From: a virus
Direction: 5' to 3' (one strand)
Virus record (IMG/VR): IMGVR_UViG_3300037277_000110
Coordinates: 9,800-73,799 of that record
Length of the DNA: 64,000 nucleotides
In this document: positions 2,765-62,318 of the stretch, piece by piece
How the letters are laid out: each line of letters begins with the position of its first letter
Numbering within the stretch: position 1 is the stretch's first letter
Position numbers and translations under genes: made by a program
Notes under the pieces: model-generated
The model's input: only the letters and a program-made list of their open reading frames with translations
Databases searched by the model: none
What the model was told of the DNA's origin: nothing

Positions 2765-2895
2765 TACCTTTGTACTAAGAAACAAAATAGATCATCAGGA
2801 GTGATCGAGTTAAGATAAACAGAAGAAATTCTGTCTGCCATTAGGCAAAGATATAACCCGTAGTTGCTCCTGACTTCTACGGGTTTTCTTTTTTG
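2765..2895 (+). promoter_or_regulatory. Promoter plus leader with terminator and 5'-to-loop pairing
   Basis: TACCTTTG box 2765-2772; stem AACCCGTAG 2855-2863 / CTACGGGTT 2877-2885 followed by a T-tract; the loop sequence TTGCTCCTGA is complementary to TCAGGAGTGA 2795-2804. Confidence 0.6.
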
Positions 2896-34762: not shown

Positions 34763-37093
34763 TTATCCATCGGCTAAAGAAGCCCACCAACCGAAGTCAA
34801 CATCGTGATCTTCCATTGCCTCCAATATCTCTTTATGCCTTGATTTAGATCCTAAAAAACAACACCCGGCAGCAGCAGCCAAGTCACATTTATTCAAATC
34901 TTCAAACGATTTAAGTTTCTTCCACTCTTCAAGTAGATCGGAATGACATTCTTTATGGCTCCGATATTCAATGTAATTACGGGTTAAGTCAAATATGTCA
35001 TTCTTGCTATCGGTCAAATTATATACACCCGGTTTAAGCTTTAATTTTTTAGCTACTTCATCATATTCATATAAGAGATAACCTCCATATCCCTGTTCCT
35101 CAAAATATTCCCAAAGTGCCTCTACGTTTATTTCAGGAAATATCATGGCTCCATAATATCTACATGCCAGTAAACAATCTCTACAAAACTCTTTGGATGT
35201 AGCTGGCCGATGTCGATACGTACAAACAAACTGATACGATTGCCAGTCAAACATATTGTCCTTTGGGTCAAGTACTTTGTCCCTCTCCCAAAACACAGCA
35301 AATCCTCCATCGGACATGTACGATCCGGTAGTTTCTAAAAGAGCTTTATTACCATTATATTTAAATGGGTCACCTCCGGCAGTGAACTTGCCAGGATACA
35401 TTGGCATCCATTTTTCTCTCTCAGTAAAGTTTATAGAATCATAATCGTATGTTTTTTTCTTCAGATCAATCTCGCCCGGATTTAATTGTTTACTAACCTT
35501 AAATCTTCCATTTTCAGGATCAACCCTAAAATGTACCTTATTATGTATTTCAACAAAATTACCAATTACACATACCTCATTACGTCTTAATTCAGCCAGA
35601 CGTTTGTCAATCTTTTCAACATCAAAACCGACATCCCCAGAGGACATTTTAAAGCATTCCTCTAATTTAAATGGAAATTTAGCCACAAGCTCCCGATACC
35701 TTTTCATATCCTGTGGAGTTCCACCTTTTAAGTAAAGATCCCTTTGAGATTGTAAATGCATTCTGGAACCATAAGGTCGGTTAAACCCATTAAATATTTG
35801 TTGAGCTGTTGGTTTTTCCATGATAGGCATTCCAAACTTATCGGTAAATTCTTCCAGATTTTCATAAGCCGCAAAAAAAAGTGGAAATAACCCTGACTTA
35901 GTTTGTCCAGTAGTTGAGTTACGTTGATAAAAATTAGAGTCTTTTATTAAAGATTGATATTTTAATCCACCCATAGCAACCATATCTTCTACAGTTGAAG
36001 GATGTATTGAGTATCCACGTATACTAGCACCTTCTCCAATAGACATAGTCTGTTTTAACATAGACCATCTCTCTGAAACATCACATTCTATAGTCTTTCC
36101 AGATTCGTCTACCAATGCAAAGTCAATAGTATCACCATCATACTCAGAACCACGTGCCGAAGTTGCAAAATCTATCCTACTCCTCAACTCATCACCAATA
36201 ACTATATTTTTAGACCTATTAAACTTTATGACTGTTTCTTGATTGTATAACCCTTCAAATGTTGGCTTGAAAAAGAATGGCATCTTTTCCCAAGATTGTA
36301 CCAATATACCATTAAATAATTTGTAAGCATTTGGATTGTTTTGCGATAATATAGCTCCATGTTTACCATCCCGTTCGGTAACCACACAATACATGCAACA
36401 CTCCGACATATTTGTAGTCCCACCACGTCTATTTTTAGGCTGTACAATACCGTAAGATACCCGGTAAGGTAAATCGACCATTTCATAATTACCATCATTA
36501 TTCGGGATAGCAAACCCAGTTTTATCATCTATGTTTTTAAACGTTTCCTGGCAAGTATATCCGTAATACCAGAATAAAAAGTTTTTTCGATCACGATCAC
36601 GATATTCTGCATATTTACCTTTATACTTTGAGCTATACCACCAATTTAAATAAGTAAAATGCCAACCACATATGTAAGTTGGCTTGCCATTAGAGAAAAA
36701 CCAGTACCCGTAAATCCTATGATACCATTGTTTTTTTATAAAATCAATTTCAACCCTATAATGGTCCTTATTTTCATTTAATCTTTCCCATATTTCATCA
36801 ATAATTTTCTGTCCGTTAACCTTGTCACTTGCCCTTTCCTTGCTTTTTAAATCATATTCAACATTTTCCTGAAGTGAAATTAATGATTCAGGCATTTTTT
36901 GTCTACGGAAATATTGTTCTTCTGGAAGTAATCCATAACCATCAATAAATTCTAATTTTGGTGGAGTTGGTAGGGATATTCTAATAGGTGTTAAATCCGG
37001 ATCAGGATCGGTTCCTTCTGGATGACCTTGATTTATTACAAATGAAAGATCAGCAGGTAGGTATCTACTTACTATATTTTGGTCAACTTTCAT
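34763..37093 (-). CDS. terL: Terminase large subunit (crAss-like)
   Basis: 776 aa; KNRRGGTT Walker A variant, LVDESGK Walker B, HPST coupling motif, AGGDPF nuclease, PEIN, C-terminal DL. Confidence 0.9.
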   Translation of the reverse strand: MKVDQNIVSRYLPADLSFVINQGHPEGTDPDPDLTPIRISLPTPPKLEFIDGYGLLPEEQYFRRQKMPESLISLQENVEYDLKSKERASDKVNGQKIIDEIWERLNENKDHYRVEIDFIKKQWYHRIYGYWFFSNGKPTYICGWHFTYLNWWYSSKYKGKYAEYRDRDRKNFLFWYYGYTCQETFKNIDDKTGFAIPNNDGNYEMVDLPYRVSYGIVQPKNRRGGTTNMSECCMYCVVTERDGKHGAILSQNNPNAYKLFNGILVQSWEKMPFFFKPTFEGLYNQETVIKFNRSKNIVIGDELRSRIDFATSARGSEYDGDTIDFALVDESGKTIECDVSERWSMLKQTMSIGEGASIRGYSIHPSTVEDMVAMGGLKYQSLIKDSNFYQRNSTTGQTKSGLFPLFFAAYENLEEFTDKFGMPIMEKPTAQQIFNGFNRPYGSRMHLQSQRDLYLKGGTPQDMKRYRELVAKFPFKLEECFKMSSGDVGFDVEKIDKRLAELRRNEVCVIGNFVEIHNKVHFRVDPENGRFKVSKQLNPGEIDLKKKTYDYDSINFTEREKWMPMYPGKFTAGGDPFKYNGNKALLETTGSYMSDGGFAVFWERDKVLDPKDNMFDWQSYQFVCTYRHRPATSKEFCRDCLLACRYYGAMIFPEINVEALWEYFEEQGYGGYLLYEYDEVAKKLKLKPGVYNLTDSKNDIFDLTRNYIEYRSHKECHSDLLEEWKKLKSFEDLNKCDLAAAAGCCFLGSKSRHKEILEAMEDHDVDFGWWASLADG

Positions 37094-37812: not shown

Positions 37813-38271
37813 TTAGCTTGGGCTCAAAGAAGCTGATCTTGAACTTGCACGGCTAATATCTTCAATAGTATGTGTCGTTAAAACACGGATATGAGGTCTG
37901 TTAGAACCTCTATCCAACCAGATATAACTATACCCGGAAATACCATTAACAGTTGTGTTTCTACCCTTAACTAAATGTTCAACGTTAATTCTCCGAATAC
38001 CTGTCCGGGTCTTACGATCCCATTCAATGTATTGAATATTAATCCACTGTTCATTTGCCACCTCTCGAATCCTGGCATGAAACTGAGCCTTGGTTAGCGA
38101 GGTAGTGTACCTAATATCCTTGTACCGTTGACCATCAGTATCCGAATAATAAAATACAGTTTGATTAGAAGAGTTTTGATAGAAGTCATGCACCTTATTG
38201 GAGCATAATAGTAAGTTATAGCTTACTGTGTCACCGCCCAATTTTACAATGGGAACAATTACTAAACTCAT
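37813..38271 (-). CDS. Hypothetical protein, first gene of the packaging operon
   Basis: 152 aa; promoter box and operator upstream, hairpin downstream. Confidence 0.55.
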   Translation of the reverse strand: MSLVIVPIVKLGGDTVSYNLLLCSNKVHDFYQNSSNQTVFYYSDTDGQRYKDIRYTTSLTKAQFHARIREVANEQWINIQYIEWDRKTRTGIRRINVEHLVKGRNTTVNGISGYSYIWLDRGSNRPHIRVLTTHTIEDISRASSRSASLSPS

Positions 38272-38343
38272 AGCATATATTTTTTAAAGTTATGCTACAA
38301 ATTTAATGTTTTATAACATATAGTTTTTTTAATATATTTTTAG

Positions 38344-38351
38344 TATGTTTG
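38344..38351 (+). promoter_or_regulatory. Bacteroidota -7 promoter box of the tRNA operon
   Basis: TATGTTTG matches TAnnTTTG; ends 4 nt before the leader ATG, implying a leaderless or near-leaderless mRNA. Confidence 0.7.
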
Positions 38352-38355
38352 CCTT

Positions 38356-38436
38356 ATGAAAACACAAACACTATATTGTCTCTATTTATCGTTGTCAAGT
38401 TACTTTAGTTTCTTGAAGAGGCAATATTATGTTTAA
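38356..38436 (+). CDS. Attenuator leader peptide of the tRNA operon (MKTQTLYCLYLSLSSYFSFLKRQYYV)
   Basis: Read by hand; codons 6-20 are all Leu/Tyr/Cys/Ser/Phe, the amino acids of the downstream tRNAs; contains the antiterminator strand. Confidence 0.8.
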   Translation: MKTQTLYCLYLSLSSYFSFLKRQYYV

Positions 38437-38455
38437 TTACATAAGACTAAACTAT

Positions 38456-38488
38456 AAAGCCTCTTGAAGAAATTTGAGAGGCTTTTTT
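38456..38488 (+). terminator. Attenuator terminator upstream of the tRNA array
   Basis: AAAGCCTCTTGAA-GAAA-TTTGAGAGGCTTT plus T-tract; 38459-38472 can alternatively pair with 38409-38422. Confidence 0.85.
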
Positions 38489-38494
38489 ATTTAT

Positions 38495-38574
38495 GTTCCC
38501 TTGGTGTAATTGGCAGCCACGGTAGGTTTAAGCCCTACTCCTTCGGGGTGAAAGTTCGAGTCTTTCAGGGAATA
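38495..38574 (+). tRNA. tRNA-Leu(UAA)
   Basis: Acceptor GTTCCCT/AGGGAAT; anticodon arm GTAGG-TTTAAGC-CCTAC; variable hairpin; T arm GAAAG-TTCGAGT-CTTTC. Confidence 0.85.
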
Positions 38575-38580
38575 CTAAAT

Positions 38581-38653
38581 GCTTGAGTAGAGAATTGGTA
38601 TATCGGTCTGACTTAGGATCAGACGCTTGTGGATTCGAATTCCACCTCAAGCA
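38581..38653 (+). tRNA. tRNA-Leu(UAG), short variable arm
   Basis: GCTTGAG/CTCAAGC; TCTGA-CTTAGGA-TCAGA; GTGGA-TTCGAAT-TCCAC. Confidence 0.85.
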
Positions 38654-38660
38654 CTAAAAT

Positions 38661-38733
38661 GGAGGTCAAGCTAATCTGGTGAAAGCACGGGTCTGAAAAA
38701 CCTGAGAGTTTGGATCGAAACCAAAGGTCTCCA
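38661..38733 (+). tRNA. tRNA-Phe(GAA)
   Basis: GGAGGTC/GGTCTCC; CGGGT-CTGAAAA-ACCTG; TTTGG-ATCGAAA-CCAAA. Confidence 0.85.
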
Positions 38734-38742
38734 CAAATATTT

Positions 38743-38826
38743 GGAAGGTTTGCTAGCGGCCTAGCAATCGGTCCTGAAAACCGAGATACAAGGTAACACT
38801 TGGGGAATCGACATCTCAACCTTCCG
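38743..38826 (+). tRNA. tRNA-Ser(UGA), with C33
   Basis: GGAAGGT/ACCTTCC, G discriminator; TCGGT-CCTGAAA-ACCGA; long variable arm. Confidence 0.75.
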
Positions 38827-38832
38827 CGATAT

Positions 38833-38903
38833 GGGATAAATACCAGGGCAGTAAGGACGGTCTGTAAAACCGAACCATGAACTTTCGAGTAGTTCTTATC
38901 CCA
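38833..38903 (+). tRNA. tRNA-Tyr(GUA), short variable arm
   Basis: GGGATAA/TTATCCC; CGGT-CTGTAAA-ACCG; GAACT-TTCGAGT-AGTTC. Confidence 0.75.
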
Positions 38904-38908
38904 CTAAT

Positions 38909-38977
38909 GTCTGGTTACACGGTACAAAGACAGTCCGCAAAACTGATTCCAGAGTGGTTCAACTCCACTACCAGACT
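38909..38977 (+). tRNA. tRNA-Cys(GCA), with C33 and a reduced D arm
   Basis: GTCTGGT/ACCAGAC, U discriminator; CAGT-CCGCAAA-ACTG; AGTGG-TTCAACT-CCACT. Confidence 0.75.
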
Positions 38978-38981
38978 CTAT

Positions 38982-39064
38982 GGAAAGCAAAACCGGAAGG
39001 CCCGGTAACTTCCTGCTAAGAATGTTGATCCGAAAGGGTTTGGGTTCGATTCCTATACTTTCCG
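38982..39064 (+). tRNA. tRNA-Ser(GCU)
   Basis: GGAAAG/CTTTCC, G discriminator; loop CTGCTAA with an imperfect stem; variable arm GATCC-GAAA-GGGTT; GGTTCGATTCC. Confidence 0.7.
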
Positions 39065-40624
39065 CTAATGTGGATAATTAGGCCAAGTCTCAATATATTT
39101 CCTTAACATATTAGCATCCATTGATTTTACCCGGTTTATTTCTGATATATTAATTAATTCATTGCCATTTTTATGTTTACTATCTATACCGATAAAATGA
39201 TCTAAATGATAAAGAAATCCTGATACATATCCCCATTTTAATCCTAAAGTTCGAATCCGATAAAATCTTTCTGCATCTTCAGGAGCATGAGAAATAAAAC
39301 CTTCATTTTCTCCACCTATTGATAAATATTCTTTTTTATTAAATATTACTGCTCCTCCATGACTTTTTTTACCATTAAATGACATATTGTGAAAAATTCC
39401 AAAAAAACTATTAAACAATAAAATATCTTGGTTTAGTTGTTCATAAAAACATCGACTCATGTGAATAAACGTTCCATCATAAGGATAAACAACTGCATAA
39501 CCTTCCCTAATCATTTTAACAGCTTCAAATATCTGATCAGGATTAACAAACACATCTGCATCCCAATTGATAACTATTGGAGTTTGTGTTAAAACGGTAA
39601 TATTATTTAACATCCTTGTTCGATGGAAATTAGGATACCCAAACCAGATATATTCATCCGAATCTACATCTGAAAAATCATGAGTTCCTTGCTCACCTAC
39701 TATTATATTGGTATTAAAATTAGCCCTGATAAACTTGATTGTTAATTCTAAATTTTCAACCCGATCCTGACTATCGTTTTTAACCGGTATAATAAATGTA
39801 ACATCCTTTAAATCCCTTTTACCTTTAAAATAAAGACTCTTTTGGTAAATTGATCTACTTTCCCACCTACCTGGGTAAAAGTCTTTACCAGTACACGTTT
39901 TAGCTAGTGGGCCGGCAAATAAACATTCGGGTCTGATCACTTTTACATCCTTATTGTAAATTTCAGCTATTTTAGCAGCCCACCAAGAGAATGTCGAATT
40001 GGCTATGATTAAATTATTAAACTGACTCATTAAAGCCAAGTGTTCAATATCTGAACAGCCTTCTACATATTCTACATTGTCATGATTTCCAAGCATTTTT
40101 TTAGCAATAGTATAATCATCAGTAAATACATAGAAAGTTTTCGTTTTATCCTTAAAAAATTCAATGTAATAACTCGGTTGTATCTGTACATAATTTTTGT
40201 TCCCAACATAATCACCTAATCGTAAATGGACGGCCCAATCATTTTTACCCGGTATAAAGTCTGTCCGTTCAAATATAGAGTCTAAAAATCCCTGTTTAAA
40301 TTTAAATTCGTTTTTAATTTCATCCCAAACATCTTCAAAATATTTTTCAGATTGCCAATAGCCTCTAATATCTGTATTAAGTGTAAAGTAATTTTGTATT
40401 GGCTGTAGAAACATAGGATGAAAATCAAAATTAAGTTCTCTTATCTCATCATTAATCTTTATGTCTGTATCTACATTCCAACTCATTTGGAAATATTTTA
40501 AATAATCCCATAATGGTAATGCCCATTGAGTATTATTTCGCTTTGATAACGACTTAATAAAAGCAATCTCAAACAAGTTATTACCTAATCTCCCGTATGG
40601 GAATTGTTTCATAAGTAAAGTCAT
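39065..40624 (-). CDS. Fusion of a GT11 alpha-1,2-fucosyltransferase-like domain and a GT2/GT7-like glycosyltransferase
   Basis: GRLGNNLF, GYWQSEKYF, HLRLGDY, IIANSTFSWWAA (GT11); then FIIPV, WDADV, GGENEGF...EDAER. Confidence 0.85.
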   Translation of the reverse strand: MTLLMKQFPYGRLGNNLFEIAFIKSLSKRNNTQWALPLWDYLKYFQMSWNVDTDIKINDEIRELNFDFHPMFLQPIQNYFTLNTDIRGYWQSEKYFEDVWDEIKNEFKFKQGFLDSIFERTDFIPGKNDWAVHLRLGDYVGNKNYVQIQPSYYIEFFKDKTKTFYVFTDDYTIAKKMLGNHDNVEYVEGCSDIEHLALMSQFNNLIIANSTFSWWAAKIAEIYNKDVKVIRPECLFAGPLAKTCTGKDFYPGRWESRSIYQKSLYFKGKRDLKDVTFIIPVKNDSQDRVENLELTIKFIRANFNTNIIVGEQGTHDFSDVDSDEYIWFGYPNFHRTRMLNNITVLTQTPIVINWDADVFVNPDQIFEAVKMIREGYAVVYPYDGTFIHMSRCFYEQLNQDILLFNSFFGIFHNMSFNGKKSHGGAVIFNKKEYLSIGGENEGFISHAPEDAERFYRIRTLGLKWGYVSGFLYHLDHFIGIDSKHKNGNELINISEINRVKSMDANMLRKYIETWPNYPH

Positions 40625-49557: not shown

Positions 49558-49659
49558 GTTTTTTTGCGAAATTTAATAAAAAATGTTTAATAACATAACA
49601 AAATTTTATTAACTTTAATATTTAAAATATTATTTTTGACCGATGATTAATTAATCAAT

Positions 49660-49896
49660 ATGGAAGAACAAGAAGAAATCGATTTACTCCCATTCTTATC
49701 TAAACTAAATAATCATCTCGGAAGAATAATGTACAAAGTTGACCACAAAATAGAACTTTCGGTAGATGAAGACGAACTCATAAAAGAGCTTTATATATGT
49801 TACAGAGAAAATAATTTACAAACCCTTAATAATTTCAATAATAATAAAACAAGAAATGGAAAAAGTAAAATTAAATTTGAACCAGGAGATTCTTAG
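49660..49896 (+). CDS. Hypothetical protein
   Basis: First gene of the plus-strand arm. Confidence 0.5.
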   Translation: MEEQEEIDLLPFLSKLNNHLGRIMYKVDHKIELSVDEDELIKELYICYRENNLQTLNNFNNNKTRNGKSKIKFEPGDS

Positions 49897-56728: not shown

Positions 56729-56813
56729 GGGTCTCTAGTTTAACGGTAGAACGATTATTATCGCAGACGAATGGCGAGGTATATTGATATAGGTTCGACT
56801 CCTATAAGATCCA
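56729..56813 (+). ncRNA. tRNA-like RNA with an expanded anticodon arm
   Basis: GGGTCT/AGATCC acceptor; TA-GTTT-AACGGTA-GAAC D arm; ATAGG-TTCGACT-CCTAT T arm; ~22-nt insert in place of a 7-nt anticodon loop. Confidence 0.7.
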
Positions 56814-56829
56814 CTAAATAACTAACATC

Positions 56830-62245: not shown

Positions 62246-62318
62246 GCCCTTGAAGCTCAATTGGCAGAGCAGATGATTTGTATTCATCGTGTTGAAGGTT
62301 CGACTCCTTCCTAGGGCT
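62246..62318 (+). tRNA. tRNA-Thr(UGU)
   Basis: GCCCTTG/CTAGGGC; GCTC-AATTGGCA-GAGC; GATGA-TTTGTAT-TCATC; GAAGG-TTCGACT-CCTTC. Confidence 0.9.

Follow-up and report, generated by a model that had tools for sequence, protein, structure and literature searches.

A putative leader-peptide attenuator ahead of a tRNA array in an uncultured peat phage

The DNA considered here, referred to as the window, is a stretch of 64,000 nucleotides corresponding to bases 9800-73799 of the complete 73.8 kb IMG/VR virus record IMGVR_UViG_3300037277_000110. Its + strand carries a tRNA array preceded by a 139-nt structured leader, which combines a short open reading frame (ORF) with an intrinsic terminator. On sequence grounds, this leader is tentatively read as a transcription attenuator of the leader-peptide type, that is, one read by the ribosome, which would gate an acquired tRNA block and would hold Leu, Tyr and Cys codons in its stall window; the probability given to this reading is slightly below even. 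Structure is the strongest evidence, and it consists mostly of features that an earlier, sequence-only reading of this DNA had not used. What can be observed directly is the ORF, three mutually exclusive helices, their departure from randomness and the absence of the arrangement from a tRNA-free relative.

Leader anatomy and competing RNA helices

The cassette occupies the + strand of a 794-bp gap between the minus-strand gene p152 (37813-38271) and GT519, the gene of a 519-aa glycosyltransferase (39065-40624). The elements of the leader and its left edge are the following.

38298-38305, minus strand: TAAATTTG, -7 box of the divergent p152 gene, outside the switch and at the left edge of the cassette
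38344-38351, + strand: TATGTTTG, exact match to the Bacteroidota sigma-A type -7 box (TAnnTTTG)
38356-38436, + strand: leader ORF of 26 codons and TAA, predicted to be leaderless, with only Leu, Tyr, Cys, Ser and Phe at codons 6-20
38366-38383, + strand: segment 1, 5' arm of the anti-antiterminator, codons 4-10 (minimum free energy fold, inverted repeat I2)
38396-38434, + strand: segment 2, of which about 38412-38434 pairs with segment 1 and about 38396-38423 pairs with the terminator (antiterminator)
38456-38494, + strand: intrinsic terminator, with a 13-bp stem and a 4-nt loop (38456-38485) and a T-run to 38494

The sequence-only reading had described this order of elements, and its positional claims are borne out. 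The promoter box TATGTTTG stands at 38344-38351 with the sequence it gave, the 26-codon ORF at 38356-38436 has the peptide and codons it listed, the terminator hairpin at 38456-38485 contains 13 pairs and a 4-nt loop and is followed by TTTTTTATTTAT, and the complementarity between 38409-38422 and 38459-38472 extends over 13 of 14 positions. TATGTTTG is the sole exact + strand box from p152 to the end of the array, and therefore expression of the tRNAs depends on read-through of the terminator. The sigma-A box of F. psychrophilum occupies positions -12 to -5 (PMC9723704), and this rule, applied to TATGTTTG, puts the predicted +1 at A38356, exactly the A of the ATG, so that the mRNA is predicted to be leaderless. 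No TTTG was seen near -33 of this promoter when the sequence was read. The ORF is the only one of at least 20 codons on the + strand of the leader, and its limits are exactly the predicted +1 and the 3' end of the hairpin formed by segments 1 and 2 (hairpin 1:2). By start context it stands at the 9th percentile among the phage's genes and at the 88th among all ATGs.

The folding check that the sequence-only reading had proposed was run on the leader (38356-38494) and on a terminator-less stage. The default fold consists of hairpin 1:2 and the terminator, with -36.9 kcal/mol and z = -5.7; the leader taken without the terminator reaches a z of only -2.05. The anti-antiterminator hairpin 1:2 (38366-38383 with 38412-38434) is worth -19.8 kcal/mol alone, and before segment 4 has been transcribed it is still the minimum free energy structure, so that termination is the default outcome. 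The terminator itself has an energy of -16 kcal/mol, and its T-run ends right at the first tRNA (38495). This T-run is strong on the + strand, while the tail on the minus strand, TTTATAGTTTAG, was not called by the terminator scan. The idea that the hairpin is a mere minus-strand terminator of the glycosyltransferase operon was therefore set aside on the polarity of the T-run, and it is kept only as part of the chance explanation weighed below.

The competing helix, the antiterminator, extends to about 23 pairs and takes in the whole terminator. The resulting leader-terminator duplex has -27.5 kcal/mol versus -11.2 +/- 2.5 kcal/mol in shuffled leaders, none of which matched it (0 of 2000). Among the nine stringent terminator-like hairpins of the genome, only the one in the tRNA leader is complementary to its own upstream 100 nt, with z = -7.1 for this upstream complementarity against -0.9 to +0.9 for the other 8 hairpins, and GCCTCT...AGAGGC, the core of the stem, does not recur as a repeat across the genome. 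Clearly, this RNA wiring departs from randomness.

Stall window and proposed mechanism

The effect of translation on these helices was modelled by folding the leader with the ribosome footprint masked at chosen A-site codons and by a partition-function scan of stall positions. In the masked folds, the terminator forms without a ribosome, the antiterminator forms with the A site on codons 6, 8 and 10, and the terminator forms again with the ribosome at the stop codon, an order reproduced by none of 1500 shuffled leaders. The partition-function scan gives a terminator probability of 0.03-0.29 for A-site codons 4/5-10 and of at least 0.9 from codon 12/13 on. Only an A site on codons 4/5 to 11/12 (CAA, ACA, CTA, TAT, TGT, CTC, TAT, TTA) opens the terminator, the following TCG being borderline, and therefore the possible inputs are Leu-UAG, Tyr, Cys, Leu-UAA and perhaps Ser-UGA. 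The array downstream comprises the following units, all on the + strand.

38495-38575, + strand: tRNA-Leu (UAA); ARAGORN, Rfam 44.9 bits
38581-38654, + strand: tRNA-Leu (UAG), variable loop short and of class-I type; ARAGORN, Rfam 49.8 bits, cloverleaf drawing
38661-38734, + strand: tRNA-Phe (GAA); Rfam 48.3 bits, ARAGORN only at a relaxed threshold
38743-38826, + strand: tRNA-shaped unit with a UGA anticodon (Ser-like), C33 and the loop CCUGAAA; no detector call
38833-38904, + strand: marginal tRNA-Tyr (GUA), variable loop short and D arm weak; ARAGORN at ps90 only, cloverleaf drawing, no Rfam match
38909-38978, + strand: marginal tRNA-Cys (GCA), D stem nearly absent; ARAGORN at ps80 only, cloverleaf drawing
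38982-39065, + strand: marginal tRNA-Ser (GCU) with a mismatched anticodon stem, abutting the convergent GT519 stop; ARAGORN at ps90 only

The sequence-only reading had counted seven tRNAs. Seven tRNA-shaped units, 3-8 nt apart, are indeed present, of which three are canonical by Rfam and four are deviant. Scored with the Rfam tRNA model (RF00005), three units pass the threshold (44.9-49.8 bits) and three have no match, the remaining one being represented by a sub-threshold tRNA-Sec match at 38981-39064 (23.8 bits, below the threshold of 47). ARAGORN calls two units by default, and its relaxed thresholds recover 6 of the 7. The unit that escapes, Ser-UGA at 38743-38826, was found neither by ARAGORN even at ps70 nor by Rfam at E<=10, but taken by itself it forms a class-II cloverleaf (z = -3.8).

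The position of each codon relative to the stall window limits what the switch could sense. Inside that stall window are codons 6-11 (Leu, Tyr, Cys, Leu, Tyr, Leu), two of the matching tRNAs being marginal; codons 14-20 fall outside. Stalls at the Phe codons (17 and 19), at AGT (15 and 18), at TCA (14) and at TAC (16) favour termination, the opposite of the proposed logic. The seven-input OR gate of the sequence-only reading was therefore an overstatement, as Phe and Ser-GCU are not inputs by the stall window and four of the seven tRNAs are non-canonical. Its assertion that every downstream anticodon is called on is right for the ORF as a whole and wrong for the codons where a stall matters, and its caveat that stalls at the last codons may partly mask the antiterminator applies with a much wider reach (codons 14-20) than it had supposed. 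Its trp-type attenuator ahead of the tRNAs gains from the anatomy (the 1:2 hairpin, the antiterminator of about 23 pairs, the classical stall order and the +1 on the ATG) and loses the OR gate of seven tRNAs.

The same reading had put the chance of the codon run at 1e-8. Codons 6-20 are 15 consecutive Leu, Tyr, Cys, Ser or Phe codons, the longest such run in the six frames of the 73.8 kb genome, where the next one has 12. The earlier figure assumed uniform codons. When the T-rich intergenic DNA is shuffled with its dinucleotides preserved, P is about 1e-4, and a hand estimate for a tract at the run's own 53% T gives P of about 1e-3. The 15-codon run is still unusual after composition correction, although a look-elsewhere discount applies to it.

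The proposed mechanism is as follows. Transcription would start at A38356, and the RNA would begin with AUG as a leaderless mRNA. Without a ribosome, segment 1 (38366-38383) would pair with segment 2, the terminator at 38456-38485 would form and transcription would stop 6-9 nt before tRNA-Leu. A ribosome that reaches the TAA at 38434 would cover segment 2, and the terminator would form again. If the A site were held on codons ~5-11 (ACA, CTA, TAT, TGT, CTC, TAT, TTA), hairpin 1:2 would open and segment 2 would stay free; it would then take up the whole terminator by pairing (-27 kcal/mol) and let RNA polymerase through to the tRNAs. Slow decoding of Leu (CTA/CTC, TTA), Tyr and Cys codons would thus turn the array on, which would provide feedback on part of the controlled tRNA set. 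For this scheme it is inferred that transcription starts at 38356, that the ORF is translated, that transcription and translation are coupled, and which tRNAs limit decoding. The mechanism is plausible, the strongest claims made for it earlier having been overstated. The full proposal, of a leaderless phage attenuator that gauges the speed of Leu, Tyr and Cys decoding and turns on its own replacement tRNA genes when this is slow, is possible, with doubt outweighing belief. If it is true, the cassette would be a self-regulating circuit of tRNA supply, of use, for example, in a host that has few of these tRNAs or whose tRNAs are being cut by a defence nuclease; any connection with host defences that cleave tRNAs is purely conjectural.

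Relatives and rival explanations

Relatives of the phage were surveyed by terminase alignment scans, which covered 82 loci (27 viral and 55 metagenome), and in three complete relatives. Terminase homologues were found from 97% identity down, P0001-P0005 being at 97, 76, 71, 69 and 67%. Single-protein IMG/VR scans with p152 and the terminase gave no matches, and the exact terminator 30-mer and two 20-mers from tRNA anticodon arms are absent from IMG/VR. The most informative comparison is provided by the locus L029, with 69% terminase identity, where the order GT226-GT519-p152-p223-terminase is kept and the GT519-p152 junction measures about 200 bp and carries no tRNAs. This junction is alignable to the window only at the p152 promoter block, which is conserved in L029. 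It is nevertheless structured: a 160-nt stretch (L029:5632-5840, minus strand of the locus, equivalent to the + strand of the window) has z = -4.1 and contains a long hairpin and, where GT519 stops, a 12-bp hairpin followed by a T-run, in antisense orientation to the genes on either side. It shows no antiterminator complementarity (P = 0.31) and, by eye, no TTTG on the strand equivalent to the window's + strand. Because the L029 junction lacks both tRNAs and complementarity, the promoter-leader-terminator-tRNA cassette is taken to be a probable lineage-specific acquisition, switch wiring included.

The tRNA arrays of two other phages did not extend the pattern. In Bacteroides phage crAss001 (MH675552) the array of 23 tRNAs begins about 27 nt after a plain box, neither a leader nor a terminator being present, and therefore the 139-nt structured leader found here is not a default feature. 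The uncultured 595 kb phage LR756511, with 35 tRNAs in about 15 blocks, has no clear matched leaders or upstream terminators. Neither is related to the present phage, so that what they lack shows only that the design is not general among phage tRNA arrays. Within the genome itself, the other two tRNAs (tRNA-Thr at 62246 and an odd tRNA at 56729) have no leader.

Several observations weigh against an attenuator that senses the array tRNAs. At codons 14-20, half of the run and the part with the two Phe and two AGT codons, a stalled ribosome leaves the terminator closed, and therefore about half of the run is not explicable as sensor design; the match of these codons may reflect a pyrimidine-rich hairpin arm with 53% T. 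Tyr and Cys, two of the four sensed tRNAs, are marginal calls. The cassette is known from a single sequence, and the array occurs in no surveyed relative: no tRNA lies within 7 kb of the terminase in the 82 loci, and the three complete relatives carry no tRNAs at all. Direct repeats are common to both hairpins, and therefore local duplication could have created the competing pairings. As for the start of the ORF, the upstream context of its ATG lacks the A at -3, -6 and -10 to -13 that is typical of the phage's genes, and the geometry of a box, 4 nt and ATG occurs 3 times in the window versus 2.1 expected, which is not significant alone. Leaderless mRNAs are a minority in Bacteroidota, as 5' untranslated regions shorter than 10 nt make up only 3.7% in B. 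thetaiotaomicron (PMC7366714) and leaderless mRNAs 5.5% in F. psychrophilum (PMC9723704).

It may be argued that the switch is real and that its trigger is something other than a shortage of array tRNAs, such as general translation activity, or sequestration of segment 1 by a protein or a trans-acting RNA, the codon bias following from the T/C-rich composition of the hairpin's 5' arm. The structural evidence depends only on the masking of 38366-38383 and not on codon identity, and the functional misplacement of codons 14-20, the 53% T of the run region and the poor start context all agree with such a trigger. However, the 15-codon run has P of about 1e-3 even at 53% T (hand estimate) and 1e-4 by local shuffles, the ORF fits exactly between the predicted +1 and the far end of hairpin 1:2, and neither a binding motif nor a match to a known riboswitch or T-box was found (Rfam). 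This explanation is considered rather unlikely. Still less probable is that the stretch from promoter to terminator (about 135 nt, two hairpins) forms a small RNA gene of its own or is what remains of one, with the tRNAs expressed by leakage through the terminator and the pairings derived from local duplication without any regulatory role. The tRNA-free junction of L029 is indeed structured (z = -4.1), with a hairpin and a terminator in + orientation, the leader contains direct repeats (AGAGGCAATATTAT / AGAGGCTTTTTTAT, TCTTGAAGA twice, and 38300-38320 / 38423-38443), and attenuator-like leaders can serve as small RNAs, as reported for rnTrpL (PMC6614838). Yet the leader and hairpin of L029 cannot be aligned beyond the p152 promoter block and have neither a TTTG on that strand, by eye, nor antiterminator complementarity, and the first tRNA follows the stem by 6-9 nt without a promoter of its own, so that the array needs read-through.

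Chance combined with ordinary function would account for the region as a plain terminator between convergent or tandem units (the glycosyltransferase operon on the minus strand and a weak + promoter), the ORF, the run and the pairings being coincidences drawn from a very large scan. The windows covered by such a scan are indeed very numerous, AT-rich DNA often contains ORFs of 26 codons (a hand estimate from composition gives about 10% per frame), TAnnTTTG boxes are near chance frequency genome-wide (126 versus 102 expected) and the genome's other tRNAs are without a leader. Nevertheless, features that played no part in the selection also fit (the 1:2 hairpin, an antiterminator against the whole terminator, the order of the stall window and the +1 on the AUG), the complementarity is unique among the genome's terminators and absent from L029, and the polarity of the T-run favours the + strand; coincidence is accordingly thought very improbable.

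The direct repeats of the leader are AGAGGCAATATTAT / AGAGGCTTTTTTAT, TCTTGAAGA, present twice, and the 21-nt pair 38300-38320 / 38423-38443; the two copies of the latter, one in the p152 promoter block and the other at the 3' end of the leader ORF, are 81% identical, a sign that local duplication may have contributed to the leader. Two further sites with a box, 4 nt and ATG, at 2839 on the minus strand and at 49631 on the + strand, are unrelated. At the former (2780-2853, minus strand), TAnnTTTG, 4 nt and ATG (TATCTTTGCCTAATG) come directly after a hairpin and open a 25-codon ORF; this site has TTTGCCTNATG in common with the tRNA leader, and it may be another leaderless small gene.

Known systems, the tRNA units and the genomic setting

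The attenuators of amino-acid operons (trpL, hisL, pheL and leuL, and the multivalent thrL and ilvL) have a short ORF with a run of regulatory codons and four segments that form exclusive 1:2, 2:3 and 3:4 helices; their terminator immediately precedes the genes under control, segment 1 contains the regulatory codons and segment 2 closes with the stop codon. The leader described here resembles them in these respects, its regulatory codons being putative. They regulate biosynthetic enzymes or synthetases, whereas here the genes are tRNAs, several amino acids are mixed, the leader is predicted to be leaderless and the setting is a phage. With tRNAs as its output, the switch would sense its own product. 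The pheM/pheST attenuator of E. coli is similar in that a component of the decoding machinery is under ribosome-read control; its target is a synthetase, its input a single amino acid and its mRNA proteobacterial and led by a Shine-Dalgarno sequence, unlike the leader found here. In T-box riboswitches it is also the status of a tRNA that decides between terminator and antiterminator. However, the T-box binds uncharged tRNA via a specifier loop in a leader of 200-300 nt ahead of synthetase or amino-acid genes, and the present leader has about 100 nt. The T-box covariance model gave no match at E<=10 in the Rfam scan, and the Rfam leader families stayed far below threshold (Phe_leader RF01859, 24.6 versus 55 bits; His_leader RF00514, 21.7 versus 49), their matches resting on the terminator. 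The leader thus has the structural features of leader-peptide attenuators and lies outside the Rfam leader families and the T-box.

Candidate leader-peptide attenuators have been reported in amino-acid operons of Flavobacterium (PMC9723704). The closest functional parallel in print is the trn operon (L-array) of Anabaena sp. PCC 7120, an accessory tRNA array that is off until translation is impaired (PMC8421152, PMC10272220). It differs in being cellular rather than phage-borne and in being controlled by the repressor TrcR at direct repeats in the promoter; the same papers mention no leader, attenuator or terminator for it. The tRNA cluster of crAss001 is likewise a co-directional tRNA block behind a TAnnTTTG box in a Bacteroidota phage, but its box lies about 27 nt before the first tRNA, without the ORF, terminator and competing helices found here. 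Phage tRNA genes are usually seen as constitutively co-transcribed helpers of codon usage or as decoys against tRNA-cutting defences (PMC10264068, PMC11464382). The sequence-only reading knew of no description of such control for phage tRNA arrays, and literature searches found no paper describing leader-peptide attenuation of tRNA genes. If the attenuator reading is true, tRNA genes can sit under ribosome-read attenuation of the trp/his type, with the product feeding back on its own synthesis, and leaderless translation would be used for regulation in a Bacteroidota system. The instance is a compact single cassette of about 150 nt, in a 74 kb phage with tRNA-free relatives, and small enough for direct reporter testing.

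The tRNA units are unusual in themselves. Bacterial Leu and Tyr tRNAs normally belong to class II, and here Leu-UAG and Tyr have short variable loops of class-I type; the Ser-UGA-like unit has no canonical T loop. Such deviant shapes may represent evasion of anticodon nucleases (compare PMC10264068) or decaying copies. The anticodons are nearly all of the NNA type for T-first codons (GAA, GUA, GCA, UAA and UGA), with UAG and GCU in addition. The codons most used by the phage (AAA, GAA, AAT and GAT) have no tRNA in the array, and Cys accounts for only 1.0% of codons; therefore, compensation of codon usage does not explain the set. Elsewhere in the genome, the tRNA gene at 56729-56814 (85 nt, Rfam 38.3 bits) has an anticodon that ARAGORN leaves undetermined ('at'); an unusual anticodon loop or an insertion may be present.

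The stretch was present in 24 sequencing runs, all of them peat metagenomes, with no RNA run among them. In contigs from four of the peat runs the leader is identical to that of the window, the single difference in these contigs standing outside it, at 38165. The late genes form a minus-strand block of about 50 kb, with the terminase (34763-37093) and structural and glycosyltransferase genes, and a plus-strand block begins at 49856. The virus is an uncultured peat phage whose host is likely to belong to Bacteroidota, because of its TAnnTTTG boxes, an A-rich start context without Shine-Dalgarno sequences and the kinship of its terminase. In nine genes of the genome a TAnnTTTG box ends 18-28 nt upstream of the ATG, a range that includes the TAAATTTG box, which ends 26 nt before the ATG of p152; genome-wide, 126 such boxes occur versus 102 expected, near chance frequency. 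Gene starts show A at -3, -6 and -10 to -13, the 'Kozak-like' pattern of Bacteroidota, and Shine-Dalgarno-like cores precede only 3 of 64 genes. Together, the start pattern and the boxes give a usable signature of the host phylum for an uncultured peat phage. The terminase is distantly akin to those of Flavobacterium and Cellulophaga phages, with 25-27% identity. Several terminase homologues (P0034, P0065, P0068, P0078, P0092, P0094 and P0099) have 1108-1188 aa and carry homing-endonuclease and intein Pfam domains (PF05204, PF05203 and PF14528); they represent intein-bearing terminases of this phage group.

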